Notes: generated from the sequence alone by a model not told the origin. 32,000 nt of DNA from an archaeon (GCA_035400625.1 DAOMZT010000002.1:60001-92000); one strand, 5' to 3'. Shown: positions 9,364 to 30,461, counted from the stretch's first letter. Program-made: numbers and translations.

Positions 9364-9842
9364 TATACAATTTCGCAATCTAAAGTAAATACCTTCTTTG
9401 GGCATGTTCCGTTTGTTAAAATTATGTCTGTTATTGTAGCAACATCTATACTTTGATGTTCTACTTCTCCTTTGACATATGTGAAATCTGTAGCTGTTGA
9501 AAGACTTGTTATTTCCCCCGAATCTATGACTTTTTCAAAGGCACCTGAAATAATAGTTTCATTTGCATGTATTGTTAAAACAAGATTAAATATCTTCAGA
9601 TTAGAGTTATTTACAAAAACAAAATTTATTGTTTTTGTATCTGAATCAATATTACAAGAAGTAATTTTAAAGTTAGCATTAATACAAGAAAGATCGCTTG
9701 CTTGCTTTAGTTGGCCAGAAGTAACATCCATTTGCTCTTTAGAATAGTTTTTGCTCCAAGCAAAGAAGATAACAGATAAAATGACCACAACTACAATTAT
9801 TAAAGATGTTACTAATATTGCAGATGCTCCTTTTTGATTCAT
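9363..9842 (-). CDS. Archaeal type IV pilin-like protein (class III signal peptide)
   Basis: The N-terminus MNQKG|ASAILVTSLIIVVVVILSVIFFAW fits the archaeal prepilin pattern of a short basic leader, Gly at -1 and a roughly 20-aa hydrophobic helix. The whole protein aligns with the first ~160 aa of the neighbouring 449-aa protein (shared NNSNLK(I/L)FNL and ILTNGTCPK). Confidence 0.7.
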   Translation of the reverse strand: MNQKGASAILVTSLIIVVVVILSVIFFAWSKNYSKEQMDVTSGQLKQASDLSCINANFKITSCNIDSDTKTINFVFVNNSNLKIFNLVLTIHANETIISGAFEKVIDSGEITSLSTATDFTYVKGEVEHQSIDVATITDIILTNGTCPKKVFTLDCEIV

Positions 9843-9853
9843 TTATTTCTCCA

Positions 9854-11203
9854 TTATTGTTTTGAAATTACTGAAATGTTGTTTGCAGGAATTGTAGCAA
9901 GAACATTACCTTTTCCACCAACTATATCAAAGTGAGAAATATTTGATTTTGAATAATATGTTAAAAATAATTCAGTATCAAATTGTATTGTAGATAATGC
10001 TTTACTATCTAACACATAAGGACTTGGTGCGGCATTGCTCATTTCTGAAGCAGTTGTACTTGGATCTGTTTGTATAAAATATTTTTCATTATTATCATAA
10101 ACTAAAAATTTCATGCCTTCTTCTGTAGTGATATCAGAATTTAAAGTAATTGTAAGTTCTCCACTGATCCTATTATAATCTACAGAATTTCTACTTTCAC
10201 TGCTATCATTTATAGTATACTCAAAAGAAGAAATTGTGCTATCTCCATAACCTGATTTTACACACCTTGCTATCACCCTTTGGGTATTTTCACTTGGAGA
10301 TAATTTTATTGGTCCAGTATAAGGAGTATTAGGAAGGGGTGGCGTTGCTGAGGGACCTTGTGTAACAATATAATAAATATTTGCATCTTCACTAGAGCCT
10401 AATGTAATTTCTGTTGCGCCAGAATATGTTCCTGCTGGTGGTGTTGCAGTTGGAGGATTTAATTTATGTGTAACATTATAGACCCAGGTGTTTACATCGC
10501 TTGCTAAAAAACCCTCTGCACTAGCTATGGCTTTAAGGGTCATTGTTCTGTCTTCTGGAATTGTTATAGCACTAGAATAAACAGAGCTTGCTGTTGTTGG
10601 TGTAGACCCATCTATTGTATAGTAGATTGTTGTGCCATTTTCAGCAGAGAGAGTAACAGATTGTTCAACATAATATGTTCCAGAAGCAACACTTGCAGTT
10701 GGTGGCCAAAATGTATTAACTACAGTACATCCACTAATATCCAAAATCTCTTTTGGGCAGGTGCCATTTGTTAAAGTAATGTTATCTATTGTGTCTATAT
10801 CTATTGCATGAAGTGTGCTTTGGTCTCCTCTTGTAAAATTGAAATCTGTGTCTGTTGATAGAAAAGCCATTTCTCCTGGATTAATATTGTCTTGAAAAAC
10901 ACCTGCTACACTAGTGTCTCCATTTATTGAAAGATTTAGATTAAATAATTTTAAATTAGAATTATTAATTATTGTTAATCTTATAGTTTTTGTTGTATTT
11001 AAGATAGTACAAGAATCAACAAAAAACTCTGCATTCAAACATTCTAAATCACTCGCAGATCTTAATTCTGCACTAATCTCATCCATTTTATTTTTGGAAG
11101 AGTTTTTTGCCCAAGCCAAAAACATTCCTGTCAGAATTACAGTTATAGCTATGATTATGGTAATTGTTATAATTTCAGAAACGCCTTTTCTTGTAAATTT
11201 CAT
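9854..11203 (-). CDS. Archaeal pilin-like protein extended by two chitobiase/hexosaminidase C-terminal-type (CHB_HEX_C-like) domains and a further C-terminal domain; putative adhesive pilin
   Basis: MKFTRKG|VSEIITITIIIAITVILTGMFLAWAKN closely resembles the canonical archaeal KGVSPVIATVLLIAITV pilin N-terminus. Residues ~167-242 (SGTYYVEQSVTLSAENGTTIYYTIDGSTPTTASSVYSSAITI...) match the CHB_HEX_C signature as I remember it. A second, weaker copy covers residues ~249-331 (AGTYSGATEITLGSSEDANIYYIV...PYTGPIKL). Confidence 0.7.
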   Translation of the reverse strand: MKFTRKGVSEIITITIIIAITVILTGMFLAWAKNSSKNKMDEISAELRSASDLECLNAEFFVDSCTILNTTKTIRLTIINNSNLKLFNLNLSINGDTSVAGVFQDNINPGEMAFLSTDTDFNFTRGDQSTLHAIDIDTIDNITLTNGTCPKEILDISGCTVVNTFWPPTASVASGTYYVEQSVTLSAENGTTIYYTIDGSTPTTASSVYSSAITIPEDRTMTLKAIASAEGFLASDVNTWVYNVTHKLNPPTATPPAGTYSGATEITLGSSEDANIYYIVTQGPSATPPLPNTPYTGPIKLSPSENTQRVIARCVKSGYGDSTISSFEYTINDSSESRNSVDYNRISGELTITLNSDITTEEGMKFLVYDNNEKYFIQTDPSTTASEMSNAAPSPYVLDSKALSTIQFDTELFLTYYSKSNISHFDIVGGKGNVLATIPANNISVISKQ

Positions 11204-13269: not shown

Positions 13270-13695
13270 ATGAACAATACAAAAAAATTAACCAAAGGGA
13301 TGTTTGTTTCTTTTAAAAAAGTTATTAAGAAATTGACTGTTGGCGCTGCAATTTCTTTATTGATTACTCTTTTAATTAGATTTATTGAAATTTCTTTTGG
13401 TTATGCTTGGGAAGAAGGGCTAACTTATCTTTTCTTATCTTATGGTTATCTTGTTGCAACAACTGCACAGTCTGTTTACATGGCTTTTAAAGGATATCTA
13501 AAAGAAGGGATCTTTTATATTATAGGGTGGGCATTAGGTTCTACAATATTATTTAGTTTTGGAGTGATTTCTTCAGAAACATTTTATGATTCTTTAATTA
13601 TTCCATTAGTAGTGGTAATAATTAAGATACTATATATTCTATTGGTTAAAAAAAAGAAAAAAATAAGAGACTATCAAAAAACAAAGCCCTTATAA
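13270..13695 (+). CDS. Small integral membrane protein (about 4 helices), function unknown
   Basis: The ATG lies 1 nt after the DAC stop codon, which suggests coupling. There are several hydrophobic helices. The 3' end overlaps the convergent 751-aa gene by 22 nt. Confidence 0.5.
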   Translation: MNNTKKLTKGMFVSFKKVIKKLTVGAAISLLITLLIRFIEISFGYAWEEGLTYLFLSYGYLVATTAQSVYMAFKGYLKEGIFYIIGWALGSTILFSFGVISSETFYDSLIIPLVVVIIKILYILLVKKKKKIRDYQKTKPL

Positions 13696-15929
13696 TTAAT
13701 TCTTACATATTTTTGTAGTTTTTTTTGATTAATCCCTAATTCTGCTAGTTCATTATAACCATATCCTGCCTTTATAAGTTGATCTGGACTATATCCTGCC
13801 TTATATAATTCTTTTGCAGAAAAGCCAAGTGGTCTTAATTCTCTTGCAGAATATCTAATTACTCTTAGTTGTCTAGCATCTAAACCTAATTTCCATACAT
13901 CTTTTGCAGGATAGCCAGCATAGTAAAGTTCTCTAGGATAAAAGCCAACATCATGTAGCTCTTTTGCAGAATAACCTGCATCTCTTAAAGATGCTGCATC
14001 AAAGCCTGCGCCTCTAAGCTCTTTTGCAGAATATGCTTTTTTTAAGTCATAAGCACTATAACTTGCAGCTCTCATTTCTTTAGCTGTATAGCCAGCTTTA
14101 GCAAACTCTGTTACGTCGATATCAAGATCTGCAAGTTCTTTTGCTAAATATCCTGCATCTTTTATAACCTTTAGATCAAAGCCAGCAAAATAAAGCTCTC
14201 TTGCTGTAAAGCCAAGATTATGGAATTGATCTGCAGAATACCCGACACCAAGAAGCTCTTTAGCATCAAATTCTGCATCTCTTAAATCATACAAACTATA
14301 GCCTGCCAAATGAATCTCCAGAGCAGAAAAACCTGCTTTCTTTAATTCTTTTACTGAACAGCCTTTTGCTATAAATTCGCTTAACTCACAACCACAAATT
14401 TTTACTTCATATAATGGACAGCCAGCATCCATTAATTGTGCACAGGAAAGACCTGCTTGAGATAGTTCTCTAGTTGTAAATCCAGAATAATATAATTCTG
14501 CAGGAGAATAGCCAAACAACAGCAAGTCTTTAGCAGAATAATTAAGATATCTTAATTCTTCTAAACTAAATTCTTCTTTTTTCTCTTTTGCTGTCAAAAG
14601 ATCTCTTAGTTCAAAAATCTCTATTAGTTTATAGCCAGCATCTTTTAGATCTCTTACAGAATAGCCAGCCCTATACATGTCTCTTGCAGAAATTCCCGCC
14701 TCTCTTAATTGCTTTAAGGTTACACCTAATGGCACTAAATCTTTTATTCTAAAACCTTCTCTTAGAAGATCAGTAACTGTTATTCCTTCATCAAATAGAT
14801 CTTGAATATTTATTTTTTCTTTATCTATCAGGTCTAAAAGAGTATAACCAGCAAGTAATAATTCGTTAATGGTGTATGCCTTCTTTAAATCATCAAGAGT
14901 ATAGCCAGCTTCTATTAGTTCTTTAGCATTATAGCCAGCAACTTTTAGTTTCTTGACTGGGACATTTAGTTTATATAGGTCTTTTGCAGGATATTGTGCA
15001 TATGCGACAACATCTTCACTAAATTTGGCTTTTAATAAGTCTTTTGCAGAGTAGCCTATATCCTTTAGTTCTTTTGCTGAATAGCCTGCTCTTTTAAGCT
15101 CAGCCAAAGTGTATTTTGCTTTCTTTAAATCTTGAGCAGAAAAGCCTAAAGTAAAAAGATACTTAGAACTAAATTTCATTTTTTTAAGTCTTGTAGCTGT
15201 ATATTTTGCTTTCTTTAGTCTTGTGTGGTTATAGCCTAATTGTAATAATTTCTTTGCAGACGTTTTTTTACTTAATAACTCAGAAAGCTTTAATGGTTTT
15301 TTCTTTTTCTTAACTATTTTGGATTTTTTAGGTTCTTTCTTTTTTTCTTCTTTAAAACCTAGAGCATTTAGTTCTGCATTAGTAAATCCTGCTTTTTTAA
15401 GATCATTATAAGTATATTTCATTCCTAAAAATATAGTGCGATTAGCTTTTACTTTTTGTAGATCTTTAGCATATCTGTGGATATTTATTTTTCTCTTTTT
15501 TAATAACGATACATCGATTGGTGAAATTATAAATCTTTTTGGAGAATTAAGTTGCTTATCTAGTTTTTCTAGAACTTCTTTTTTGGTTAGGCTTGCTGTT
15601 GCTTTTATTGGTTTGTTTTCTTTAGGTTTTGCTTGTTTTGGTTTTTTTGGCACATTAAGAGTAAAACCTAGTTTTTTTAATTCTGGGTTAGTAAATCCAG
15701 CATTCTTTAAATCTTTTATTGTGTATTTTAAACCTAAGTAAATGGTGTGATTAGCATTTACTTTTTGTAAATCTTTAGCATATCTACTAATGTTTATTTT
15801 TTTCTTCTTTAATAATGATATATCGATTGGTGAAATAATAAATTTAGTTGGAGAATTAAGTTGTTTATTTAGTTTATCAACTACTTCTTTTTTGGTTAAA
15901 CTAACTGTTGCTTTTTTTATTTTTTTCAT
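13674..15929 (-). CDS. 751-aa repeat protein with two ~100-aa N-terminal modules followed by ~50 tandem copies of a 10-residue repeat (consensus about A-G-[YF]-[ST]-A-[KR]-[ED]-L-x-x); no signal peptide
   Basis: The strict 10-aa register can be read directly, for example AGYSAKELKD IGYSAKDLLK ... AGYSAKELHD VGFYPRELYY AGYPAKDVWK LGLDARQLRV IRYSARELRP LGFSAKELYK AGYSPDQLIK. An AGGAG motif precedes the ATG at 15929. Confidence 0.8.
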   Translation of the reverse strand: MKKIKKATVSLTKKEVVDKLNKQLNSPTKFIISPIDISLLKKKKINISRYAKDLQKVNANHTIYLGLKYTIKDLKNAGFTNPELKKLGFTLNVPKKPKQAKPKENKPIKATASLTKKEVLEKLDKQLNSPKRFIISPIDVSLLKKRKINIHRYAKDLQKVKANRTIFLGMKYTYNDLKKAGFTNAELNALGFKEEKKKEPKKSKIVKKKKKPLKLSELLSKKTSAKKLLQLGYNHTRLKKAKYTATRLKKMKFSSKYLFTLGFSAQDLKKAKYTLAELKRAGYSAKELKDIGYSAKDLLKAKFSEDVVAYAQYPAKDLYKLNVPVKKLKVAGYNAKELIEAGYTLDDLKKAYTINELLLAGYTLLDLIDKEKINIQDLFDEGITVTDLLREGFRIKDLVPLGVTLKQLREAGISARDMYRAGYSVRDLKDAGYKLIEIFELRDLLTAKEKKEEFSLEELRYLNYSAKDLLLFGYSPAELYYSGFTTRELSQAGLSCAQLMDAGCPLYEVKICGCELSEFIAKGCSVKELKKAGFSALEIHLAGYSLYDLRDAEFDAKELLGVGYSADQFHNLGFTARELYFAGFDLKVIKDAGYLAKELADLDIDVTEFAKAGYTAKEMRAASYSAYDLKKAYSAKELRGAGFDAASLRDAGYSAKELHDVGFYPRELYYAGYPAKDVWKLGLDARQLRVIRYSARELRPLGFSAKELYKAGYSPDQLIKAGYGYNELAELGINQKKLQKYVRINYKGFVF
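15344..15911 (-). repeat. Internal tandem duplication (about 312-bp period) encoding two copies of a ~100-aa module within the 751-aa gene
   Basis: Residues ~7-104 and ~111-200 are collinear: SLTKKEV(V/L).KL.KQLNSP..FIISPID.SLLKK.KINI.RYAKDLQKV.AN.TI.LG.KYT..DLK.AGFTN.EL. The nucleotide similarity is visible (for example 15469.. versus 15781..) but imperfect. Confidence 0.8.
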
Positions 15930-16106: not shown

Positions 16107-16112
16107 ATATAA

Positions 16113-16573: not shown

Positions 16574-17059
16574 TTATTTTGGGATTATTAATCCGCCAAT
16601 ATATTCTTGTTTAAAAATTTCTTTTTTTTTTAAAAATATTTTTTCTATTCCTGAAAAATCAGTTATATTCCCTTTAATATTATTAGTATATTTATAATTT
16701 TCAAAACTATAGCTCTTTGGTCCCCTATATGGCGCCTTTGTGTTTACTTGAGCCAAAGCCAATTTTAGAAAACCAAATGTTTCTTTTGCAAAGTCAATAT
16801 TTCCGTGATATTTCTTACTCATTCCTCCAGAATAAGCCATGGCCCACACTGGTTGTTTATTAAATCTTACAATCTCTTGACCAGGGGCAAAGAAAAAACC
16901 ACAATAACTATCTCTATATTCCCAATTTCCTCTTTTATATTCTAATTCTTTAAAGTGTGGTCTTTGTGCTTTTACCTCTTTTGCATCAATATTTGCATAT
17001 GTCTTTATTTTTGCCTCAACTAAAAATTCAGCAAGTTCTTTTAATTTTAAATTATTCAT
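16574..17059 (-). CDS. Conserved hypothetical protein, DUF5680-like (assigned from memory of the family pattern)
   Basis: The pattern FLVEAK..TYA...ELEYKRGNWEYRDSYCGFFFAPGQEIV...PVWAMAYSGGM...PYRGP resembles my recollection of DUF5680 family proteins. It lies 9 nt downstream of glmS. Confidence 0.4.
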   Translation of the reverse strand: MNNLKLKELAEFLVEAKIKTYANIDAKEVKAQRPHFKELEYKRGNWEYRDSYCGFFFAPGQEIVRFNKQPVWAMAYSGGMSKKYHGNIDFAKETFGFLKLALAQVNTKAPYRGPKSYSFENYKYTNNIKGNITDFSGIEKIFLKKKEIFKQEYIGGLIIPK

Positions 17060-17068
17060 TTTTCCCTC

Positions 17069-18904
17069 TTATTCTACAGTTACTGATTTTGCAAGATTTC
17101 TTGGTTGATCAATAGGACAATTTTTTAAGTCAGCTATATAATAAGCTAAAAGTTGCATAGGAATAACATTAACAAAAGGCGTTAAATTTGTACAGATTGA
17201 TGGAACAAAGATAACATGATTACATAATTTTTCTATCTCTTCATCTCCTTGAGTAGCTAACGCAATAATTCTTGCACCTCTTGCTTTTGCCTCATGTATG
17301 TTAGATAAAACTTTTTCATAGTTTAAATCACTGTTTGCAATAACCACTACTGGCAAGCCTTCATCAATTAAAGCAATGGGTCCGTGTTTCATCTCTGCTG
17401 CCGGATAGCCTTCTGCATGGATATAAGATATTTCTTTTAGTTTCAAAGCGCCCTCTAGGGCGATAGGGTAATTGATGCCTCGTCCAAGATATAGTGCGTT
17501 TTTACAGGTAAAATATTCTTTTGCAATTTCTTTTATTTTATTTTCATTATCTTTCTTTAACTCCCCTCTTACTATTTGTGGCAATTCCAAAAGGTTATTT
17601 ATCAATTTTTTTGCGACACTGTCATCTATGCTTTCTATTATTCTTCCAATATAAAGTGTTAAAAGATTCAAACACACCAATTGGCTTGTAAATGCTTTTG
17701 TTGAAGCAACCCCTATCTCTGGCCCTGCTCTTATGTAAATTCCGCCATCACATTCTCTAGCAATAGTGGAACCAACAACATTAACAATACCTATTACCTT
17801 TGCTCCTTTTTTCTTTGCTTCCCTAACAGCTGCCAGGGTATCTGCAGTTTCTCCTGATTGGCTTATTGCAATAACCAAAGTATTATTGTCAATTATTGGG
17901 TTTCTGTATCTAAACTCAGAAGCATAATCCACTTCTACTGGTATTCTTAAGAAACCCTCCATAGAAAACTTAGCAACAAGGCCACAATGCCATGATGTGC
18001 CACAAGCAACAATAATTATTCTTTTAATATTTTTTATTTGCTCTGTAGTTAGGTTTATACCACCTAATTTAGCAGTATTATTTTCAAAATCAATTCTTCC
18101 TAATATTGCTTGCTTAATAGTTTCTGGTTGTTCATGTATTTCTTTTAACATAAAATGCTTATAGCCTTGTTTTTCTATCTCTTCTAGATTCATTTCTATC
18201 TCTGTGGTTTCTTTATCCAAAGTTATATTATCAAGAGAAGTAATCTCACAACCTCCATTAATACAAGCAATCTCGTTATCTTCTAAATAGATTACTTTTT
18301 TGGTGTGTTCAATTATTGCAGAAATATCGCTTGCAACAAAATATTCATCTTCTCCAATTCCAATAATTATTGGAGAACCACATCTTGCAACAATTAGTTC
18401 TTTACCTTGTTTATCCATAACCACAAGACCAAAACTTCCAACTACTTTTTTTAAGGTTTTTTGAACTGCTTTTTTTAAGTCTCCAGAATAGAACTTTTCA
18501 ATTAAGTGTGCTAAAACTTCAGTGTCTGTTTCTGACTTGAAAACGTGACCTTCTTTTTCTAAAAATTTCTTTAAAGTTTCAAAGTTTTCAATTATGCCAT
18601 TATGAACTAGAGCGATATTTCCTTTACAATCTGTTTGAGGATGGGCATTTACTACATTGGGCTCTCCATGTGTTGCCCATCTAGTGTGTGCAATTCCTAT
18701 ATTTGCCTGTGGGTTGTTTTTTTTAACTTCTTCTTCTAGATTTATTATCTTTCCTTTGGCTTTAATAATTTTAAGCTCTTTAGTCTTGTTATCAATGACA
18801 GCTAATCCACAAGAATCATAGCCTCTATATTCTAGTCTTTTAATTCCATTAATTAATATAGGAACACAATCTTTTTTTCCAAAATATGCACTTATACCAC
18901 ACAT
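17069..18904 (-). CDS. glmS: Glutamine--fructose-6-phosphate aminotransferase (isomerizing)
   Basis: 611 aa. The N-terminal Ntn nucleophile is MCGI. Class II glutaminase blocks are present (GIAHTRWATHG, HNGIIEN). There are two SIS domains (SQSGETADT). The canonical C-terminus is LAKSVTVE. Confidence 0.95.
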   Translation of the reverse strand: MCGISAYFGKKDCVPILINGIKRLEYRGYDSCGLAVIDNKTKELKIIKAKGKIINLEEEVKKNNPQANIGIAHTRWATHGEPNVVNAHPQTDCKGNIALVHNGIIENFETLKKFLEKEGHVFKSETDTEVLAHLIEKFYSGDLKKAVQKTLKKVVGSFGLVVMDKQGKELIVARCGSPIIIGIGEDEYFVASDISAIIEHTKKVIYLEDNEIACINGGCEITSLDNITLDKETTEIEMNLEEIEKQGYKHFMLKEIHEQPETIKQAILGRIDFENNTAKLGGINLTTEQIKNIKRIIIVACGTSWHCGLVAKFSMEGFLRIPVEVDYASEFRYRNPIIDNNTLVIAISQSGETADTLAAVREAKKKGAKVIGIVNVVGSTIARECDGGIYIRAGPEIGVASTKAFTSQLVCLNLLTLYIGRIIESIDDSVAKKLINNLLELPQIVRGELKKDNENKIKEIAKEYFTCKNALYLGRGINYPIALEGALKLKEISYIHAEGYPAAEMKHGPIALIDEGLPVVVIANSDLNYEKVLSNIHEAKARGARIIALATQGDEEIEKLCNHVIFVPSICTNLTPFVNVIPMQLLAYYIADLKNCPIDQPRNLAKSVTVE

Positions 18905-18947
18905 AATTATAAATTAAACAACGAAACAATTAAAAAGAGAAAAGAAA

Positions 18948-20360
18948 TTAACAATATTTTGTATATTTACAACAACCACTAAAATCTTTAGATACTGAAA
19001 TATAATTTTTACTACAATCTATATTATTTATATCAACACCGGTAATCCTTTGATACTGGAAAGGATACTTGAGTGTTCCTTTACTTAATTTATCTTCTAA
19101 ATAATCATATTTTACTGATCCTGCAATTTTTTTACTACCTGAGGCGTGAATATATTTGTGTTTCCCAGATTCTACCCCAACATATATTGCAGCATGTCCA
19201 AAAATTCCTGCACTTTTTGTATTTAAAGACAAGAAATCTCCTGGTTTTAAATTATCCAAATCAGACTTATTTTTTATATTTCCAACAATCCCTTTTATAT
19301 GTCCTTTGTTATTTTCTAAATAATCTGCAAATGCACAACCGCTACTAAACATCTGCAAACAACTTGCAGAATCATCTAAATATCCTAAATCTCTTAATAC
19401 TACATATTTTAAACCAACACAATCAAAATCAGATTTTAATTTTCCTATTCCTTTAACAGTATATCCATTTCTTCCTTCCCATTTATATTTTCTGCCAAGA
19501 TATTTTTCTGCTTGATTTAAAATTTTTAAACCAATTTGTGAATTTATGGTTGAATGATACATGGTTGGTTTATCTGATTGCTTTTCTTCCGTTATTGGCA
19601 CAGGGTCTTCTTTTATTACTGGCGCTCTTGTGAATTTAATTGCATCAAAATCCCACCTATCTAAACAACTTTTTTGAACATTGCATTTTTTTCCTTTACA
19701 ATAAAAATCAACTATTTTTTTATTTATTTTACATAAATTAAAAATAGAATGTTCTTTGTTATCTAGAACATAAAGATTTACATATGCTAAATTTATTAAT
19801 TGGCTATCATCAGAGAACTGCATAAATATTAAAACAAACAGATTATTTTCTGTGCCTTTTTCTATATTAAATTCAAACAGATTTTGTGTACCAAAAATAA
19901 AATTTATCAAATCCCAATAGTCTATTTTAAAAGTATTATTTATTATATAATTTGATTGATTTGCATAATTTTTAAAAGAATGAGTTTTTGCAGATTCTTT
20001 AATATTGCTAGCAGGATTGTTTAAATAAAAATTATTAATTTCATCTAAAATATCATTTAGTTCAGTATCTATATCATATAGTTTTTCAGGAGTAGTAATT
20101 ATTGCAAATATTGGCTGATCTTTATTAAACCCTGATAAATGAACTTGTATGGTTTTGGTTTTATTCTTGTAATCAATAATGTATGATTCTGGAGAATCTA
20201 TTGTTTTTGCTTTATGCCAGACATTATCTATTTTATAAGATACATCTTTAATTTCTAATAAATTGTAGTTATACTGAGAATAAATAGTTTCGCTGGCATT
20301 AACTTGTTGCAATAAGAATAATAAAGAAAATAAAACAAAAATTATATTTCTTTTATTCAT
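18948..20360 (-). CDS. Secreted 470-aa protein: N-terminal module shared with the 925-aa neighbour, plus a C-terminal NlpC/P60 domain and Cys-rich tail
   Basis: Signal peptide IIFVLFSLLFLLQQVNA. NlpC/P60 motifs are KYKWEGRNGY, FDCVGLKYVV, PGDFLSL, FGHAAIYVG and YIHASG. The tail DCSKNYISVSKDFSGCCKYTKYC parallels the tail of the 1072-aa protein. Confidence 0.75.
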   Translation of the reverse strand: MNKRNIIFVLFSLLFLLQQVNASETIYSQYNYNLLEIKDVSYKIDNVWHKAKTIDSPESYIIDYKNKTKTIQVHLSGFNKDQPIFAIITTPEKLYDIDTELNDILDEINNFYLNNPASNIKESAKTHSFKNYANQSNYIINNTFKIDYWDLINFIFGTQNLFEFNIEKGTENNLFVLIFMQFSDDSQLINLAYVNLYVLDNKEHSIFNLCKINKKIVDFYCKGKKCNVQKSCLDRWDFDAIKFTRAPVIKEDPVPITEEKQSDKPTMYHSTINSQIGLKILNQAEKYLGRKYKWEGRNGYTVKGIGKLKSDFDCVGLKYVVLRDLGYLDDSASCLQMFSSGCAFADYLENNKGHIKGIVGNIKNKSDLDNLKPGDFLSLNTKSAGIFGHAAIYVGVESGKHKYIHASGSKKIAGSVKYDYLEDKLSKGTLKYPFQYQRITGVDINNIDCSKNYISVSKDFSGCCKYTKYC

Positions 20361-20393
20361 ATTTTTTCCTTAAGAGAATGATGGTTTTTTATT

Positions 20394-23171
20394 TTATTTT
20401 CCTGCCCAAACATAGGTATCTGCAAGATATCTTGTTATGCTTGTTACATAACTATCGTGTCCATTCCATGTTTTTGCAACTTGTGCAAATGATTTGTTTT
20501 TATATATGTTTGGACTATTTGTTGTGCCTTTATCTAAATTTAAATAAAATGCCTCTATTCCTTGTTCAAGTGTTGGATAAGAACAATATTTAGAACCCAC
20601 AACTTTTTTACCCCCACATCTACAAACCCTTGTAACTCCAGAAATATCATTATGAGATATCAATGTTTGAGTAACACTTCCTGAATTTTGGTTATATAAA
20701 GATTTTTCTGCTCTGAAAAATGCTAAAGAATATACAGGATCTACATTATATAATAAACCCAAATTGTAAAATGCTGGCGAAGCATCTTTTACTTTTTGTG
20801 GAATATTTAATGACGGTCTATTAAATACATTCTTTATTTGATCAACAGTTAAACTAGGATCATCGTCTGTTCCGTTACTTGTGCCTGGAAAGACAATACT
20901 GCTTTTTGTTCTTTTCCCAGCAAATTGTTGTTTATTAATACCTATTCCACCTTCTTGTCTTATTTTTGCTAATGTTTCTGGATTGGTTGTATAACAACCA
21001 TCTGCTCCTTTTGCTAATGTGGTATCTTGACTTACTGGAGGTGTAGGTGTTGCTGGTGGAGTTTCTAAAGGTGGCTTAGGAGTTGCTGGTGGAGTTTCTA
21101 AAGGTGGCTTAGGCGATGTTGGTGCTACAGGTATTGCATCTACAGGTATTCCTGATACACCATCTAATTTACTTGGATCAAAGTCCCATCTATCTATACA
21201 ACTTCCTGGAACTTTACAATCATATCCTTTACAATAGAAATTTACTATGTTTCTATTTATCTCACATAATTGATATATTGATTGAGCATTATAATCTAAA
21301 TTATATAAATTTGTATATGTTAAATTAATTAATGAACCATCATCTGATAACTGCATAAATATTAAAACAAACTTGTCATTAACATTAGGAGCTATTGAAA
21401 ACTTGAAAGTTTTATCAGAACCCATTGTATACTTCATAGCAGCAGGGCTTGTCGCTAGAGTATTAGAATTTACTGTAAAATTTGTTTGCAAAGTATAGTC
21501 TTTAAATTCTCCTGTTGATTTAATATTTGCCAAATAACCATATATCTTATCAGATTGATCAGGAGTTGCTATAATTGCATAAACAGGTCGAGTATAATTT
21601 AAGCTTGATAGATTTACACTTATTTCTTTTTTGTTATTTCTATAATCTATTAGGTATGCTTCTTGATCATTTACTTTTCTTGCCTTATATTGTGTAGCTG
21701 TAGTTGTGCTATAACTAATATCTGGGATTGAGGAATATACAGTGAAATCCAAGTTGACTTGTTGTGGAGCAACAGGTTCTACTTGCTCTTCTGTCGTATC
21801 CGACCCAACATCACTTGGAGCACTTGGCACATCATTTATGCTTGGTGGTTGTTGACCAATATCATTGCGATTTTTACAAATGTCATTTTTGAATTTTGTT
21901 ATTTCCAACTCATCTATTTTTAAATTCAATAATAATTCTGCTGTATTTAATGGCGCACCATACAATTTTGCTTTTGCTATGCTTATATATATCTCTAATG
22001 CTCTTGTTTTGTTTTTTAGTTCAGAAAAGGTAATTTCCTCTATATTGCCTGTTTCTTTATAACATAACCTATAGGTGTAATCATCTACACAGTAATATAG
22101 AACTTTATTTTCTCCATTATATTTTATTTTTTTAGTTAAAGCAGACCATAATGGATCATAATCAGATTCTACAAAATTATCAGGACATTTATTTATCATT
22201 GAATCTTCATTTTTAATATTTAATGAAGCTACTTTATAACCAGCCTCTATGTTCGGTCCACTAAACATATTATTTTTAGTAAGAGTTAAAGTGACATCTT
22301 CTTTAAACCCATCTACTGTATCTGTTGTAGTATTTACTATTACTTTTCCTGTTGTTATAAGACCATCTAAAGGTAAAAAAGTAATTTTCAAAAATATTCT
22401 TGGAGCACTTGTATGTGAATGAACAGTTTCTTTAACTAAATTTTCAAATCCATTTCTCACAAAGTTCAAACCAGTTTTAAAAAATAAACCTATCTTTTTC
22501 AAAACATTATCATCAACTCTTTCATATCCTGAGTTGTCTGATGACATAGTTTGGGTCGCTTTATTTCCTATCCACCCAGTTTTTGAAGAAAAATTATCTG
22601 TTGAATATTTTGTTATATATAGTGCTACTCTATCATATTTAGACAGATCGTTTATTGATAATTGTGATATAATTCTGTCAGTTGAAATTTTAAAAGAAAT
22701 ATCATCTGATTGTGGTTCAGACAATACACCAAATAATGCAACAGTGTCAGAATCATTAAATAATTTACTGTTTTTACATGAACTTTGTAATGCTGTACTT
22801 CCATAGTTTAATATACAATAAGATTTGTTTTTAATTATGTTTTTAATAGTGCTTTTATCATACATTAAGTCAGACATCTTATTTGTTATTCTATTTTCAC
22901 TATCTGTTTTGCTATTATAAAAAACTATTGCATAATAATGGACATCTTTAGTACATTCCCCTGTAATCCCAGAAATTAGATAATCACTATCTATACTGAG
23001 AGATTTTACCCTTAAACCAACTTCATTTGAATTCAAATTTTCGTAATCAACAACTGTTTTCCACATTTTTTCATTTTCACAAGCAAATAATGGATTAGCA
23101 ATTAAAATTATTAACATTATTATAAGAAAAAATTTAAATCTATTGATATGCATAATATTTTTTGAATTCAT
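20394..23171 (-). CDS. Secreted (possibly lipid-anchored) 925-aa protein with a Pro/Thr-rich linker and a C-terminal lysozyme-like (GH73 / N-acetylglucosaminidase-like) domain
   Basis: The signal peptide ends LFAC, which is lipobox-like. The middle module (~21170..21770) is homologous to the N-terminal part of the 470-aa protein (VLIFMQ(F/L)SDD, FYCKG..C.V..SC(L/I)DRWDFD). The C-terminus has YSLAFFRAEKS (Glu822, codon 20706..20708), ISHNDISGV and YCSYPTLEQGIEAFYLNL. These follow the GH73-type pattern ES...NN.FGI...Y.S..ESI.DY..LL. Confidence 0.6.
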   Translation of the reverse strand: MNSKNIMHINRFKFFLIIMLIILIANPLFACENEKMWKTVVDYENLNSNEVGLRVKSLSIDSDYLISGITGECTKDVHYYAIVFYNSKTDSENRITNKMSDLMYDKSTIKNIIKNKSYCILNYGSTALQSSCKNSKLFNDSDTVALFGVLSEPQSDDISFKISTDRIISQLSINDLSKYDRVALYITKYSTDNFSSKTGWIGNKATQTMSSDNSGYERVDDNVLKKIGLFFKTGLNFVRNGFENLVKETVHSHTSAPRIFLKITFLPLDGLITTGKVIVNTTTDTVDGFKEDVTLTLTKNNMFSGPNIEAGYKVASLNIKNEDSMINKCPDNFVESDYDPLWSALTKKIKYNGENKVLYYCVDDYTYRLCYKETGNIEEITFSELKNKTRALEIYISIAKAKLYGAPLNTAELLLNLKIDELEITKFKNDICKNRNDIGQQPPSINDVPSAPSDVGSDTTEEQVEPVAPQQVNLDFTVYSSIPDISYSTTTATQYKARKVNDQEAYLIDYRNNKKEISVNLSSLNYTRPVYAIIATPDQSDKIYGYLANIKSTGEFKDYTLQTNFTVNSNTLATSPAAMKYTMGSDKTFKFSIAPNVNDKFVLIFMQLSDDGSLINLTYTNLYNLDYNAQSIYQLCEINRNIVNFYCKGYDCKVPGSCIDRWDFDPSKLDGVSGIPVDAIPVAPTSPKPPLETPPATPKPPLETPPATPTPPVSQDTTLAKGADGCYTTNPETLAKIRQEGGIGINKQQFAGKRTKSSIVFPGTSNGTDDDPSLTVDQIKNVFNRPSLNIPQKVKDASPAFYNLGLLYNVDPVYSLAFFRAEKSLYNQNSGSVTQTLISHNDISGVTRVCRCGGKKVVGSKYCSYPTLEQGIEAFYLNLDKGTTNSPNIYKNKSFAQVAKTWNGHDSYVTSITRYLADTYVWAGK
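21049..21114. repeat. Tandem 33-bp repeat, 2 copies, encoding PKPPLETPPAT twice
   Basis: 21049..21081 and 21082..21114 differ only at the last base. The repeat is in frame in the Pro/Thr linker of the 925-aa CDS. Confidence 0.9.
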
Positions 23172-23486
23172 TTTTATTCCTTCTTTTTTTAATTTGATTA
23201 CCTTTTTTGATTTATTCTTTTTTAATTATCTTTTTTGATTTGATTACTTTCTTTTTTATCTAAATTAATTTCTTAACATTAATTGTTGTTATTGTGAGTT
23301 TTTGTAATATATTATAAGAATATAACCTTTATAAATATATCTAAATGGATTCGATAATTTGACTGGTTTTTAAAAGACTCCCTTTTTATTTACTTAAAAA
23401 GGATATTAAAACTTGTCGGTCAATAAATATATTATATCCATATATATGTTTTCTTGTTTTAAAACTTGCTAAGAGGTGAAACTACA

Positions 23487-25877: not shown

Positions 25878-27026
25878 CTATCTCTTCTTTTTTCTAGCAA
25901 TCTCCAAAATCTTTCTTTTATATAACTCATACTTTGGCTGTAGAGATAACAAATACCAACCAAATCCTAAACTCCCAAAATGCAAAAGAACATTTGTAGC
26001 ATTCACATCAAATTTAGCACCTTTTTCTACATATGGTAAAATATTTGGATTGTGGGTTTCTATACTTTTTGTTAATCTATTTAATCCGTTTACAATTTCA
26101 GGATTATTACCAAATCTAGTAACAAATTCATCAACAGTTAAACGTGACAAAAATCTTAATTTTGCTGAATCGCTTACTTCTTGCATAGCCTTACTAACCT
26201 CTAATGTAAATTTATTATTTGTTCTTAAATTTTTTACTAAGTCTGCATATATTTTGTCAAGTTGTGCTTTTTCAGAAGGTCGTAGGTTTTTATAAACATA
26301 TCTTAATTCCACATTATCGAATTTCTGATTAGAAATTTTCTCTCCATTCCAAAAAAACACCTCTCCAGGTCCAGCAGTTTTATTCAATTCAATTACTTTT
26401 CTTCTAATAACTTCTTCTAATCTTCCATAATTTGCCTTTTGTTTATTTAAAATTATATTTGCTCTTTTCGCATCCATCTCCACATATACAATTTTATTTT
26501 GTTTTTCATCCAAAAAATATACTTTTTTTTTATTATTTTTATTTCCAAAGGTTTTCAATCGTGAATTTTCCCTTGCATTTAACTCTGTAAGTCTTTTACT
26601 AACAGACTTAACTTCAGGGATAGTGTGGTGTTGTGCATTAGACAAATGCTTTTGTGTAAAATGAGGCTCTGTAACAGAACGCACGGTTTTATCTATTGGA
26701 GCTGCTGATGTTGCAAGTGCTCCGATAAATAAAGCTGCTGATGCGCCTTTTTTAATATTGCCTTTTGCTTTGTTAATTTTCCAACGCAAAGCTCTCATTC
26801 TAGCAGCTGTTCTTTTACTACTCATAGTTCCTGTTCTACCTGCAATTGTGCTACTATTTACATTTCCTGTTCTACCTGTCGCTATTCTTCCAGCACCACC
26901 TGTAGAAACTCTATTCATATTTCCTGCTTTGCGTGTAATAATCCCCCTGCCACCCACTACCTTGCCACCCATAGTTATTTTTGTTGGTGATTTTAGTCTA
27001 TATCTTGGCATTGGTTTTGGTGGCAT
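25878..27026 (-). CDS. Unknown double-anchored membrane protein, paralog A (Gly/Arg-rich repetitive N-terminus)
   Basis: I moved the start to the second ATG (MPPKPMPRY) by analogy with paralog B (MPPKYRQR). Both have the same AGGT-N8-ATG context. Organisation is a basic N-terminus, a TM helix (ASAALFIGALATSAAPI), a ~250-aa conserved domain, a C-terminal TM helix and a basic tail. Confidence 0.6.
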   Translation of the reverse strand: MPPKPMPRYRLKSPTKITMGGKVVGGRGIITRKAGNMNRVSTGGAGRIATGRTGNVNSSTIAGRTGTMSSKRTAARMRALRWKINKAKGNIKKGASAALFIGALATSAAPIDKTVRSVTEPHFTQKHLSNAQHHTIPEVKSVSKRLTELNARENSRLKTFGNKNNKKKVYFLDEKQNKIVYVEMDAKRANIILNKQKANYGRLEEVIRRKVIELNKTAGPGEVFFWNGEKISNQKFDNVELRYVYKNLRPSEKAQLDKIYADLVKNLRTNNKFTLEVSKAMQEVSDSAKLRFLSRLTVDEFVTRFGNNPEIVNGLNRLTKSIETHNPNILPYVEKGAKFDVNATNVLLHFGSLGFGWYLLSLQPKYELYKRKILEIARKKKR

Positions 27027-27075
27027 AATCATTTACCTCTTTTTTTGTTTTTATTTTTCTCCTATAATTCTTATA

Positions 27076-28044
27076 TTATTTCTTCTTCCTTCTAGAATAG
27101 GCCTTAATTTGTCCCCACAGAGATAATAAACCTATGGCAGTTACTGAACCTGCACCAACTGCATTTATAGTGCCATCTATTCCAGATTCTCTCTGTACAA
27201 ATTTCAGAACTTCTCTTGAATTTCTTGGGTTTTTTGGGTCTTCTTTATAGATTTCTAAACTTTTTATTACCTCATTTAATCCTCTTATAATTTTAGGATT
27301 ATTACCAAATCTAGTAGCAAATTCTTCAACAGATAAACTAGCTAAATAATTTACTCTGGCAGTATCGTTTAGTTCCCCCATTTTAATAGCAACTTCGCCT
27401 GAAAATTTATCATTTGTTTTAACATCTTTTATAATTTCTTTGTATATACTATCTAGCTTAGCCTTTTCAGATGCATATAGTTTATCATATACATTTCTTA
27501 ATTTTGCAACACCTAAATCAATCTTAGTAATTTCTTTTCCATCCCAAAAAAACACTTCTTCAGGTCTTGCTTTTTTATTTAATTCTGTTACTTTCTTTTC
27601 TACAACACCATCTATTCTTTTAGAATTGGCAATTTGTTTTTTCTCAATTTCCATTGCTTTTTTAGCATCCATTTCTACAACTATAATTTTATTTTGTTTT
27701 TCATCCAAATAATGTAGCTTTCTTTTAATATCTTTATTTTTACTTTTTTGTAATTTTTGTGAATATTCTCTTCTAGCTTTGGCATTTAACTCTCCAATTC
27801 TTTCACTTACTGACTTGATTTCAGTAAGATAATTGCCTTTTGCTAAAATTAAATTTCTATTAATGCTATGCGATCTTACTGCTGATTTCGCAGCCTTACC
27901 TACAAAATAAGGAGTAGTTGCTATTGTTCCGATAAGTGCTGCAGTTGCTACTTTTTTCCCAAATTTTGTGGGTCTCTTTATTTTATTACCTAATTTGGAT
28001 CTTTGTTTTCCCAAATTTATTCTTTGTCTATATTTTGGTGGCAT
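27076..28044 (-). CDS. Unknown double-anchored membrane protein, paralog B
   Basis: It is collinear with paralog A over the central domain (KSVS.R..ELNA, YLDEKQNKI..VEMDAK, EVFFW.G.EI, SEKA.LD.IY, FGNNP.I..GLN). It has the same N-terminal MPPK start and TM/TM architecture. Confidence 0.6.
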   Translation of the reverse strand: MPPKYRQRINLGKQRSKLGNKIKRPTKFGKKVATAALIGTIATTPYFVGKAAKSAVRSHSINRNLILAKGNYLTEIKSVSERIGELNAKARREYSQKLQKSKNKDIKRKLHYLDEKQNKIIVVEMDAKKAMEIEKKQIANSKRIDGVVEKKVTELNKKARPEEVFFWDGKEITKIDLGVAKLRNVYDKLYASEKAKLDSIYKEIIKDVKTNDKFSGEVAIKMGELNDTARVNYLASLSVEEFATRFGNNPKIIRGLNEVIKSLEIYKEDPKNPRNSREVLKFVQRESGIDGTINAVGAGSVTAIGLLSLWGQIKAYSRRKKK

Positions 28045-28129
28045 AATTATCTACCTTTTTTTTAATTTTCTACAATCTAAAAGTAAAAGAACAAAACACT
28101 TTATATTTGTTTTCTTTTTTAATCAGTAT

Positions 28130-29617
28130 ATGACCTTACAAAACAAGCAAGAAAAACTATCTTGGCTTCTTGAAAAATCAATTATAAGTCTTACTAAAGA
28201 CAAATCCAAAAACTACGGTCTACTTTTTAGTGGAGGCATTGATTCTTGTCTTCTTGCTCTTCTTCTAAAAAAACAAAAAGTTAAGTTTACTTGCTTTTTT
28301 GCATATGTAAAAAACAATACTGAGCCTAAAGACTTGGCTTTTGCAAAAAAGGCAGCAAAAGAACTTAAATTAAAGCTTGAAATAGTTTCTATAGACAAAA
28401 AAGAAATACCTAACATTCTTCCAGAGATTATTAACATAACTGATAACACTAGTCCAGTTTCTGTAGGTGTTGCAATACCAATCTATCTCTCATGCAAAAA
28501 AGCCAAAGAGAAAAAAACAGATGTCTTGTTGTCTGGTCTTGGTGCTGATGAGCTATTTGCAGGATACAGCAGATTTACTATACAAAATCAAAAACAGGAA
28601 ACCAAAAAATGCCTTGATAATATTCAAAAGGATAATTTAGATAGAGATAAAGCTATTGCAAAATATTTCAAATTAGCAATTAAACACCCATATCTTGATA
28701 AAGCAGTCATTGATTTTGCTTTGTCTTTGCCATCAAGCCTTTTGATTTCTTCAAAACAAAACAAAATAATTTTACGCGAAATTGCAGAAAGCCTAGGGCT
28801 CTCCAAAGAGCTTGTTAAAAGAAAAAAACTTGCATGCCAATATGGCAGTAATTCTGATAAGATACTAGAAAAGCTAGCAAAAGAAAAAAAATATAAAACA
28901 AAAACAGAATATCTTTCTTCTTTTAGAAAAGAAAAAGTAGGTGTGCTTTTCTCAGGTGGAAAAGACTCTAATCTTTCATTATGGCTTGCACAAAAGGCAG
29001 GAAAAGAAATTTCTTGTCTTCTCTCTATGATCCCTGAAAATGTAGATTCATATATGTTTCAAACACCAGAAGTTAATTTTCTCAAAATGCAGGCTTTTGC
29101 TTTAGATATGCCTCTACTAATTACAAAAACAAAAGGCGAAAAGGAAAAAGAACTTGTTGATCTTAAACAGGCAATTGTCTTTGCTAAAGCAAAGTTTGGA
29201 TTAACAGGAATTGTTGCTGGAACCCTTTATAGTAATTATCAGAAAGACAGAATTGAAAAGATATGTAAAGAATTAGATTTAAATCTGATTACTCCTCTTT
29301 GGCATGTGAAAGAAGAAGAGGAGATAAGATTGCTTTTAGATAATGACTTTATGTTTGTTATATGTAAAATTGCAGCTTTTGGCTTTTCTGAAAAAATGCT
29401 AGGCAAAGTCATTGATTACAAAGATTTAGAGGAGCTTAAAAAACTAAACAAGAAATACCATACAAACATAGCTGGAGAAGGCGGAGAATATGAAACTTTA
29501 GTTCTTGATTCTCCTGTTTTTAAGAAAAGAATTTCAATAATTGAAAGCCAAAAAATAATGAAAAATGAATTTACAGGAAACCTAATAATTAAAAAGATAA
29601 AACTAGAAAAAAAATAA
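28130..29617 (+). CDS. Fusion protein: asparagine-synthetase-type PP-loop domain (no glutaminase domain) plus a diphthine-ammonia ligase (Dph6/MJ0570-type) domain
   Basis: The real start is probably the ATG at 28130 (MTLQNKQ). The upstream part of ORF 27968.. overlaps the divergent gene and starts on a non-ATG codon. The N-terminal half has GLLFSGGIDSCLLALLL and LLSGLGADELFAGYSRF, which are AsnB C-domain motifs. The C-terminal half from ~28931 has VGVLFSGGKDSN, SYMFQTP, GIVAGTLYSNYQKDRIEKICKELDL and AGEGGEYETLVLDSPVF. This is near-collinear with archaeal MJ0570/PH1257-type proteins as I remember them. Confidence 0.75.
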   Translation: MTLQNKQEKLSWLLEKSIISLTKDKSKNYGLLFSGGIDSCLLALLLKKQKVKFTCFFAYVKNNTEPKDLAFAKKAAKELKLKLEIVSIDKKEIPNILPEIINITDNTSPVSVGVAIPIYLSCKKAKEKKTDVLLSGLGADELFAGYSRFTIQNQKQETKKCLDNIQKDNLDRDKAIAKYFKLAIKHPYLDKAVIDFALSLPSSLLISSKQNKIILREIAESLGLSKELVKRKKLACQYGSNSDKILEKLAKEKKYKTKTEYLSSFRKEKVGVLFSGGKDSNLSLWLAQKAGKEISCLLSMIPENVDSYMFQTPEVNFLKMQAFALDMPLLITKTKGEKEKELVDLKQAIVFAKAKFGLTGIVAGTLYSNYQKDRIEKICKELDLNLITPLWHVKEEEEIRLLLDNDFMFVICKIAAFGFSEKMLGKVIDYKDLEELKKLNKKYHTNIAGEGGEYETLVLDSPVFKKRISIIESQKIMKNEFTGNLIIKKIKLEKK

Positions 29618-29651: not shown

Positions 29652-30461
29652 ATGGCAGCAATTTTAGCACACATGCAATTGGTAAGGGATATTGTTAAAG
29701 AAAATCCAAAACTTTTCTCAAAATCTGATTTGAGATATCTATTACAGGGTGCTACTTATCCAGATGTCTATTATATTACTGGCCTTAGAAGCATAACTAA
29801 AAAACCAAATTTTAGTAAATTTGTGCATGAAACTATGGATGAGGATTATAGTTTTGCAAAATTAGTGCTGGAGAAAGCAAAAAACAAACCAGAAAAACTT
29901 TTTGCCATAGGCTTTATATCTCATTTTATTCTTGATAAACATATTCATGATTATATTAATAGTACTGAACTAGGGAATAATGTAAAACATCTGGTTTCAG
30001 AATATTATCTAGACACTAAATTTAAAAATCAAAAAATACCTACCCCAAGATATCCTTTAAAGCTGATTAGAACTTGTGTTAAAAAATATTATCCAAAAGA
30101 TTATGATACATTTAAAAAAAGAATTAAATTATCAATAAACAGCTTAATTTTCTATGATTTAGTAAATAGATTTATAATTAAGAAAATAGTAAATGCTAGA
30201 TACAGAAAAGAAAAATATAAAACAAAGCTATCTATTCTTAATGTTCCTTTTAAAATTGCAAGGCTATCTAAACATCAAAAATTAGGGTATGATTATAAAG
30301 CACTATTAAACCCTGATATTTCTATTAAAAAGAAACATACAGAAAAAATGTATAAAATATATCTAAAAGCAAAAGAAGAGTTTATAGATTTTGTAATTGA
30401 TTATGAGCTTCATATCTCTGACTATACTTCTAAGCAAAAGAAAATTGTAGATTTCAAATAA
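29652..30461 (+). CDS. Hypothetical protein, possibly of the zinc-dependent phospholipase C-like family
   Basis: His/Asp pattern near the N-terminus (ILAHMQL), then GATYPDVYY and GFISHFILDKHIHDY. This resembles proteins usually annotated as zinc-dependent phospholipase C family. The assignment is from memory only. Confidence 0.35.
   Translation: MAAILAHMQLVRDIVKENPKLFSKSDLRYLLQGATYPDVYYITGLRSITKKPNFSKFVHETMDEDYSFAKLVLEKAKNKPEKLFAIGFISHFILDKHIHDYINSTELGNNVKHLVSEYYLDTKFKNQKIPTPRYPLKLIRTCVKKYYPKDYDTFKKRIKLSINSLIFYDLVNRFIIKKIVNARYRKEKYKTKLSILNVPFKIARLSKHQKLGYDYKALLNPDISIKKKHTEKMYKIYLKAKEEFIDFVIDYELHISDYTSKQKKIVDFK

Follow-up and report, generated by a model that had tools for sequence, protein, structure and literature searches.

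A predicted two-gene cassette of secreted, peptidoglycan-hydrolase-type proteins in a variable slot beside glmS of an uncultured archaeon

In the present study, a stretch of 32,000 nucleotides (nt) of archaeal DNA (GCA_035400625.1, DAOMZT010000002.1:60001-92000; hereafter the window, with positions counted from its first letter) was analysed computationally. Our attention was given to four consecutive genes on its minus strand, which encode a 925-amino-acid (aa) protein, a 470-aa protein, the glutamine--fructose-6-phosphate transaminase GlmS and a DUF5680 protein (Table 1). An earlier description made from the nucleotide string by itself (the sequence-only reading) had presented the first two as a secreted pair of glycan-cleaving and peptide-cleaving type with a shared module, standing next to glmS and apparently in one transcription unit with it. 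The pair, the module and the linkage to glmS stood up to the analysis, and the single transcription unit with glmS did not. The six-frame list of open reading frames (ORFs) agreed exactly with the four coding regions and reproduced the spacers of 33, 43 and 9 nt between them; this gene layout and the sharing of the module are real and far above chance. The identity of GlmS was supported by the TIGR01135 equivalog (807.9 bits against a cut-off of 418), by two SIS domains and a GATase domain in Pfam, and by the MCGI start, and the DUF5680 assignment by a match to PF18931 (E 4e-27). The four proteins are found in NCBI as HPV66304-HPV66307 under the label 'MAG TPA ... [archaeon]', on contigs up to 813 kb. 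The identical 470-aa protein is indexed in 42 blocks of a public assembly collection, and among the places listed the contigs reach 520 kb. Alignment of the module against GTDB species genomes matched a single locus, L007 ('archaeon isolate AMR_MDS_2622'), and the window itself encodes a diphthamide-synthase fusion and archaeal pilin-like proteins. Because of the NCBI names, the GTDB match and these two kinds of gene, the origin is archaeal. The 90% cluster of the DUF5680 protein includes one member labelled Candidatus Diapherotrites archaeon, and the G+C content is 24-34% throughout the window and 29% in the genome. We conclude that the source is an uncultured, small-genome archaeon of the DPANN type.

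The two larger proteins share one strong local match, between residues 470-691 of the 925-aa protein and residues 18-267 of the 470-aa protein (39% identity, BLASTP E 2e-46). The nucleotide ranges proposed earlier for the module of about 200 aa translate to residues 468-668 and 24-244 and agree with it, and the conserved strings VLIFMQ and FYCKG..C.....C.DRWDFD were found at residues 602 and 645 of the larger and 176 and 219 of the smaller protein. An AlphaFold2 model of the module (mean predicted local distance difference test, pLDDT, 87.1) shows an immunoglobulin-like (Ig-like) beta-sandwich with two long helices, followed by an unstructured tail that is fixed by four invariant cysteines (C636, C647, C652 and C658 in copy 1). 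Foldseek of this model against the PDB and viral models returned only generic Ig-like, RhoGDI, PmoD, CARDB and LPMO folds and nothing at E 1e-3 or better, and since the matches were only generic, no function can be assigned to the module. It belongs to no Pfam or NCBIfam family. In a profile search among the sequences gathered here, the module was present in every protein with a GH73-like domain or the clade's NlpC/P60 domain, about 27 proteins in all, and the same search did not find it in the 1072- and 868-aa proteins of the window. Large database searches added two fragments only. Word-indexed searches for homologues yielded no more than 5, 8 and 2 proteins; this marks the family as very narrow, and the module is private to this clade. 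Ig-like sandwiches often bind, and the modelled sandwich is loosely in line with the earlier proposal of a binding domain; the searches gave that proposal no specific structural match or function.

The 925-aa protein is built of a signal peptide, a long N-terminal region, the module, a Pro/Thr-rich linker whose length differs between homologues, and a C-terminal domain. The signal peptide, as read from the translation, ends in a lipobox-like sequence, and Cys31 could tether the enzyme to the surface. A cysteine after the hydrophobic region also occurs in the homologues with N-terminal type B, one of the N-terminal types compared below (VFAAC, VFASC), and is not present in P0005. For the C-terminus, a GH73-like assignment had been put forward. 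In Pfam this domain of the window protein found no family even at E<=10, and the curated-model check with PF01832 did not reach the gathering score. In addition, NCBIfam and PHROGs were run on the 925-aa protein, whole and in pieces, and neither matched the N-terminal region, the module or the GH73-like domain. A phmmer search of the domain against PDB sequences gave no match, and only a profile made from remote homologues succeeded. The domain was thus recovered by profile, PDB and structure searches and not by Pfam. Homologue P0004 (49% identical) matches PF01832 over profile positions 10-119 of 123, with E 1.1e-3 and 20.0 bits against a cut-off of 30.2. When 1.84 billion representative proteins were scanned exhaustively by HMMER with a profile of four close sequences, only 35 were found; PF01832 was matched in 23 of the 32 relatives scanned (best E 1e-11), and the relatives also carry the bacterial wall domains PG_binding_1, Amidase_3, VanY, M23 and CHAP.

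A profile of 27 aligned domains matched solved GH73 enzymes with E 2e-5 to 3e-3 (a phage cell wall hydrolase, Auto/Lmo1076 (3fi7), Acp and FlgJ). E822, Y808 and F819 are invariant in these 27 sequences. Glu822 (domain position 107, motif FFRAEKS) is the candidate catalytic residue; it aligns with the glutamate of 'AALES' in Auto (3fi7) and of 'LHET' in Acp (5wqw), and the glutamate of this ALES/HET motif we take to be the catalytic general acid of the solved GH73 enzymes. The AlphaFold2 model built on the same alignment had a pLDDT of 89.6 and a predicted template modelling (TM) score of 0.89. The top 18 PDB matches of this model in Foldseek were all GH73 enzymes (LytB, AtlE, Acp, Auto, SagB, AtlA), with lytic transglycosylases (SLT) ranked far below them. 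The best match, LytB 7pj3 (E 3.4e-3, probability 1.0, TM score 0.47-0.53), is moderate and not strong, and the model superposes moderately on the solved enzymes, which supports the lysozyme-like fold expected of this C-terminus. Two features of the domain occur in this clade only, namely an extension at its N-terminus (residues 716-775, GADGCYTTNPETLAKIR...GTDDDPS) and an insertion with CxCGG...YC. Taken together, residues 716-925 appear to be a very divergent member or an offshoot of the GH73 fold, for which the activity and the bond specificity are predictions.

The 470-aa protein carries a Sec-type signal peptide that is kept in its homologues, the second copy of the module, and an NlpC/P60 domain with a Cys-rich tail. 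The NlpC/P60 assignment was borne out by PF00877, which matched residues 279-423 over profile positions 1-98 of 105 (31.8 bits against a cut-off of 23, E 1.5e-7). Cys314 (DFDCVG), His389 (FGHA) and His405 (YIHASG) form the candidate catalytic triad, assigned by motif and not by superposition. The cysteine and the first histidine are kept in all homologues having the domain, and the third residue is H, N or D (H405 is replaced by N or D in two homologues). The domain also matches phrog_329, a tail lysin annotated 'minor tail protein' (E 5.6e-10), and it is 50% identical to the C-terminus of the 1072-aa protein of the window (2553..5771), which has the same Cys-rich tail. A longer allele of 754-764 aa was observed in P0007, P0008 and P0012 (L013 10626-12920, L014 10919-13213, L009 3020-5284). 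It has an insert of about 290 aa between the module and the catalytic domain; the string 'LWSKLAAESGC...GDGIGQV' in it recalls motifs of SLT-type lytic transglycosylases, and the insert has no Pfam match.

Comparison with related loci gave a result that the sequence-only reading did not contain. In the close relatives (glmS 83-91% identical) the backbone is collinear and runs from diphthamide synthase to CorA, then through the slot that holds the hydrolase genes, and on from glmS-DUF5680 to diadenylate cyclase (DAC). The slot was filled in every relative examined. L013, L014 and L015 share 95-99% nucleotide identity with the window strain on both flanks, and the first ~1,300 nt of the 925-aa gene past the signal peptide have no blastn match in them, the N-terminal ~430 codons being replaced by unrelated sequence (L013 8001-10520, L014 8001-10799, L015 8001-10505). 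Four unrelated N-terminal types were distinguished, 16-26% identical to one another, and the module next to them is 95-100% identical. The GH73-like domains fall into two types with 46-48% mutual identity, and N-terminal type B occurs with both of them, which shows that the parts recombine. In L008 and L009, identity is 84-91% for the housekeeping neighbours and only 57-70% for the hydrolases, whose length and domain content also vary. L010 (glmS 83% identical) has a single gene of module and GH73-like domain and no NlpC/P60 gene in the slot. Since the N-terminal types are unrelated, the C-terminal types are recombined and the flanks are nearly identical, comparison of these sequences indicates that the CorA-glmS slot is a hotspot of domain exchange in a conserved backbone. 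N-terminal type B (P0002 and P0004, in L015 and L013) has at residues ~250-310 a long hydrophobic stretch rich in Gly and Ala (GVWSMAASGAAVGATAGGIAGS...GGAIGGGIADIAG), which recalls glycine-zipper segments that insert into membranes; some alleles may be membrane-active. The region downstream of glmS also varies. A DUF3368/UPF0175 pair, toxin-antitoxin-like, lies between glmS and DUF5680 in L010 (12694-13578), and DUF5680 is absent in L009 (7162-7216).

The conserved position of the pair next to glmS was seen in all relatives with enough contig (L008, L009, L010 and L013-L015). The proposal of one transcription unit with glmS fared differently. The spacer between the 925- and 470-aa genes contains an AAGGA Shine-Dalgarno (SD)-like motif and has no T-run. 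Among the relatives, L008 shows the two genes with a 20-nt overlap and L009 with a gap of 21 nt; because of this spacer and the overlap in L008, the two hydrolase genes are probably co-transcribed. The spacer between the 470-aa gene and glmS has the sequence TTTCTTTTCTCTTTTTAATTGTTTCGTTGTTTAATTTATAATT-ATG. It begins with TTTCTTTTCTCTTTTTAATTG, contains the T-runs TTTCTTTTCTCTTTTT and then the TATA-like TTTTTAAT, a box of the form TTTTTAA(A)T whose centre lies ~28 nt upstream of the glmS ATG, and has no SD-like motif. T-runs are the intrinsic termination signal of archaea, and the TATA box of a leaderless mRNA is expected ~28 nt before the ATG. The first 24 nt of this spacer are kept in L008 and L009, and a close variant, TTTTTCTTTCCTATTTTTAAATTT, is found in L010 and L011, where it follows a GH73-type gene, so that the element is conserved whichever hydrolase lies upstream. 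Furthermore, most genes of the window have an SD-like G-cluster 9-15 nt before the start, including the 925-aa, 470-aa and DUF5680 genes, and glmS has none. In this glmS resembles two other genes without an SD-like motif (28130..29617 and 29652..30461), which have a TATA-like hexamer at -30 to -33. For the first of these, a GTG-start ORF of 549 aa (27968..29617, +) overlaps the divergent 322-aa gene at 27076..28044 (-); the public gene calls give a 495-aa product from 28130, and with TTTATA at -30 this start would suit a leaderless mRNA. The pattern suggests that this class of genes is transcribed as leaderless mRNA. We read the locus as two units, the 925- and 470-aa genes on the one hand and glmS and DUF5680 on the other, with the second probably co-transcribed and starting in the 43-nt spacer; this division is drawn from motifs.

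Upstream of the 925-aa gene, a GAAGG SD-like motif lies 8 nt before the ATG. In the divergent intergenic region a conserved block was also observed (ATTTATAAAGGTTATATTC, 23300..23345 on the minus strand; consensus ATTTATAAA(G/T)(G/A)TT...), at a distance of 90-160 nt (~150 in the window) from the first hydrolase gene, and it is kept in L008, L009, L010, L011 and the distant L012. It could be the promoter of the cassette with a long leader, or an element common to the divergent CorA gene. A glmS ribozyme was excluded, as Rfam found no RNA family over 16000-24000.

Table 1. Coordinates of the genes, protein parts and spacers of the locus
Feature	Position	Strand	Basis
Divergent intergenic region, CorA gene (+) / 925-aa gene (-)	23172..23486		sequence
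925-aa ORF	20394..23171	-	ORF list
925 aa: signal peptide, residues 1-30, ending in lipobox-like PLFA-C (Cys31)	23082..23171	-	read from translation
925 aa: N-terminal region, residues 31-469, exchangeable, no recognised fold	21765..23081	-	no Pfam match; strain comparison
925 aa: shared module copy 1, residues 470-672	21156..21764	-	BLASTP to copy 2; AlphaFold2 model
925 aa: Pro/Thr-rich linker, PKPPLETPPATP repeated	21027..21155	-	translation
925 aa: divergent GH73-like domain (N-acetylglucosaminidase-type, lysozyme-like), residues 716-925	20397..21026	-	profile, PDB and fold searches
925/470 spacer, 33 nt	20361..20393	-	sequence
470-aa ORF	18948..20360	-	ORF list
470 aa: Sec-type signal peptide, residues 1-23 (...LLQQVNA-SE)	20292..20360	-	read from translation; kept in homologues
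470 aa: shared module copy 2, residues 24-245	19626..20291	-	BLASTP; profile search
470 aa: NlpC/P60 endopeptidase domain and Cys-rich C-terminal tail, residues 279-470	18951..19526	-	PF00877
470/glmS spacer, 43 nt, candidate terminator and promoter	18905..18947	-	sequence
glmS, 611 aa, glutamine--fructose-6-phosphate transaminase, N-terminal MCGI, C-terminal KSVTVE	17069..18904	-	TIGR01135 and Pfam
DUF5680 protein, 161 aa, 9 nt past glmS, GAGGG before start	16574..17059	-	PF18931, E 4e-27

Several other genes of the window deserve a short description. Wall-hydrolase-like proteins had earlier been estimated to take up about a third of the window. This held only in part: hydrolase domains could be recognised in the 925-, 470- and 1072-aa proteins alone, and the 868- and 320-aa proteins match no family. 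The 1072-aa (2553..5771, -) and 868-aa (5785..8391, -) proteins are paralogues (58% identical over 848 aa), and the C-terminal NlpC/P60 domain is added only in the former. There was no meaningful Pfam match in the 868-aa protein, the middle of the 1072-aa protein or the 320-aa protein; therefore these, like the ~290-aa insert of the longer NlpC/P60 allele, cannot be called hydrolases. Two proteins beside this first array (9363..9842 and 9854..11203, both -) share a pilin-like hydrophobic N-terminus (47% identical over 159 aa). In the larger one, a weak match to archaeal Pilin_N and two CHB_HEX_C_1 stretches were seen, and this protein may be a glycan-binding subunit of a surface filament. At 13674..15929 (-) lies a 751-aa protein that matches the Pfam 'Decapeptide repeat region' (PF25296, E 3e-128) in 11 stretches and is 72-89% identical in relatives. 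The adjacent genes at 25878..27032 and 27076..28044 (both -) are paralogues without a family match, 43% identical over ~297 aa. The product of the former is only 40% identical in L008, against 84-90% for its neighbours, and the two form another fast-evolving pair.

Peptidoglycan hydrolases of archaea, especially of the DPANN group, have already been described. They were reported to be most prominent and diverse in Nanoarchaeota, to have shuffled domains and to be distributed patchily, in the manner of an arms race; two of the haloarchaeal enzymes were able to kill a bacterium (PMC12352652). Examples of the modular class are the Halogranum salarium proteins Woldo (M23 and PG_binding_1) and Danwoldo (PF01832 and PG_binding_1) (Strock et al. 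2025, PLoS Biol, PMC12352652). The present pair resembles the modular enzymes of that study in its predicted secretion, in the combination of a murein-lytic domain with a non-catalytic module, in its occurrence more than once per genome and in its shuffling. Unlike them, its non-catalytic module is no known wall-binding domain, its glycosidase falls below the Pfam threshold, and the locus keeps a fixed place in a conserved chromosomal backbone and is not on a plasmid or small contig, with the N-terminal half swapped between strains. Strock et al. defined their class by a recognised catalytic domain together with a recognised wall-binding domain; here PF00877 is present and no known binding domain is. 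A survey on that basis would presumably miss both proteins, because the module is unrecognised and the glycosidase is below threshold.

Large extracellular lytic-transglycosylase proteins of the GH23/SLT type acting on murein, up to ~3,000 aa, have been described in Pacearchaeota and Woesearchaeota (Castelle et al. 2021, PMC8204110), and the murein-lytic genes of putatively predatory Woesearchaeota were taken to indicate that these archaea prey on bacteria (Vigneron et al. 2022, PMC9723730). Our locus is like these in that a small-genome DPANN archaeon encodes predicted extracellular murein-degrading domains of a kind read as tools of attachment or attack. It differs in that the pair is GH73-like and NlpC/P60, with SLT folds ranking far below GH73 as said. 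With the GH73 N-acetylglucosaminidases (LytB, AtlE, Auto/Lmo1076, Acp, FlgJ) the C-terminal domain shares the predicted fold and the invariant glutamate at the ALES/HET position; unlike those enzymes, it has an archaeal host and its similarity is detectable only via intermediate sequences. The partnership of a GH73-like enzyme with an endopeptidase is like that in bacterial autolysin and endolysin sets. The 470-aa protein agrees with the NlpC/P60 gamma-D-glutamyl-diamino-acid endopeptidases (PF00877) in its above-threshold match and its Cys/His/His motifs, and differs from typical members by an insertion of ~70 residues between the Cys and His motifs and by the Cys-rich C-terminal tail. Its similarity to solved structures is very weak (E 0.076; for example dipeptidyl-peptidase VI, 3pvq). 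What is new here is the glycosidase invisible to curated models, the clade-private Ig-like module and the exchange of cassettes at strain level.

On balance, we consider it probable that the locus is a two-gene cassette of secreted, modular enzymes of the peptidoglycan-hydrolase type, which would form a transcription unit of its own in a variable slot of a conserved backbone. Both proteins would be exported by their signal peptides. The 925-aa enzyme is predicted to cut the glycan backbone of bacterial murein and the 470-aa enzyme the stem peptide, by which the archaeon would breach, attach to, or feed on bacterial cells. Since the module is nearly invariant (95-100%) and the N-terminal region is swapped wholesale, the module more probably serves the producer side, in surface tethering or in the assembly of the two enzymes, and the exchangeable region is the more promising candidate for recognising the target. 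Following this model, glmS and DUF5680 would be a second unit, and the position beside glmS would reflect the neighbourhood in the backbone and not metabolic coupling. Taken as a whole, the locus is best read as encoding secreted enzymes for attack on peptidoglycan or for attachment, under diversifying selection. Several points weigh against this model. The GH73-like domain fails every curated hidden Markov model, down to the Pfam search at E<=10, and its fold match is modest (E 3e-3, TM score ~0.5). No known wall-binding domain shows detectable similarity to the module. In addition, at 29% G+C chance alone often produces TATA-like and T-rich strings, which makes the promoter and terminator calls weak, and there may be read-through into glmS.

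Other explanations were weighed against this model. The four genes might form one operon, in which the degradation of foreign wall would be co-regulated with the cell's own amino-sugar synthesis, for example by setting scavenged N-acetylglucosamine (GlcNAc) and N-acetylmuramic acid (MurNAc) against de novo glucosamine-6-phosphate. The common strand, the short spacers and the adjacency kept in L008, L009, L010 and L013-L015 speak for it, and archaeal T-run terminators are often leaky. This explanation is weakened by the spacer analysis, namely by the conserved T-run and TATA-like element directly before glmS, which stands there whichever hydrolase is upstream, and by the lack of an SD-like motif in glmS as compared with its neighbours. 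The adjacency itself carries little functional weight, because the whole backbone is collinear in close relatives; in L012, what follows the divergent NlpC/P60 gene beside CorA is not glmS but the gene of another protein with a signal peptide. Moreover, no genes of amino-sugar salvage or transport (nagA, nagB, nagK, murQ, transporters) were found among the ORFs of the window scanned against Pfam. We regard the operon as unlikely, and the suggested metabolic link to the hexosamine economy is pure speculation. The combination of a glycosidase with an endopeptidase is also the classical one of autolysins, and the two proteins could remodel a murein-like or glycopeptide envelope of the archaeon itself. 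The proximity of glmS would then belong to envelope biogenesis, as GlmS supplies envelope amino sugars, and the lipobox-like Cys31 would hold the 925-aa enzyme on the surface of its producer. Murein is normally absent from archaea (PMC12352652, PMC8204110), no mur genes were seen in the 32-kb window or the fetched flanks, and in a housekeeping autolysin one would not expect whole domains to be exchanged between strains of 95-99% identity. This swapping weakens the autolysin explanation, which we hold to be distinctly unlikely.

The cassette could also be directed at a wall other than murein, either the pseudomurein of an archaeal host such as a methanogen of the Methanobacteriales type, or another GlcNAc polymer such as chitin, with the divergence of the domain reflecting a changed bond specificity. 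The distance of the GH73-like domain from curated models and its small number of relatives (35 in ~1.8 billion representative proteins) would fit such a shift. The chitobiase/hexosaminidase C-terminal domains of the neighbouring pilin-like protein can also be counted in favour of such a target. Known pseudomurein-cleaving enzymes are endoisopeptidases, and we know of no glycosidase for the beta-1,3 bond between GlcNAc and N-acetyltalosaminuronic acid (GlcNAc-NAcTalNA); both facts count against pseudomurein. According to PMC11291902, all cultivated DPANN archaea have archaeal hosts, which favours a target of this kind. Yet the remote relatives of the domain are murein hydrolases of bacterial type, fused to PG_binding_1, Amidase_3, VanY, M23 and CHAP, and a non-murein target seems to us quite improbable. 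As for an origin from a virus or mobile element, of which an endolysin or tail-lysin cassette would remain beside glmS, the match of NlpC/P60 to the 'minor tail protein' phrog_329 and the variability of the slot and of the region downstream of glmS could be taken in its favour. This candidate was rejected as extremely improbable, since neither the window nor the related loci hold any further viral gene, integrase or transposase, both proteins have N-terminal signal peptides and the slot is occupied in every relative; the G+C content is also uniform across the window. The cassette of secreted murein-directed enzymes accordingly stays our preferred explanation.

As phages exchange receptor-binding and lysin modules, by analogy the slot could be a strain-specific determinant of range in a DPANN archaeon that lives on bacteria as a cross-domain episymbiont or predator, and could retarget the two-enzyme device to different bacterial walls by exchanging the N-terminal region and by recombining the two GH73-like types around the invariant, private Ig-like module. 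We put this forward tentatively, as a possibility with a rather low chance of being correct. In a bolder version, the highly divergent GH73-like domain may have changed its specificity towards a wall other than murein, for example pseudomurein.

The record of archaea attacking or attaching to bacteria is still at an early stage, and for most DPANN archaea no host is known. The present locus offers a concrete and widely sampled example. Surveys based on domains would probably miss this two-enzyme set, because the glycosidase lies below curated thresholds and the accessory module is unknown to them. The analysis also removes the tempting but unsupported idea of an operon coupled to glmS. The exchange of cassettes at a locus that is otherwise 95-99% identical is the pattern expected of arms-race molecules, and the proteins are therefore good candidates for identifying the partner organism. 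It is suggested that they could possibly serve as a source of new antibacterial lysins.

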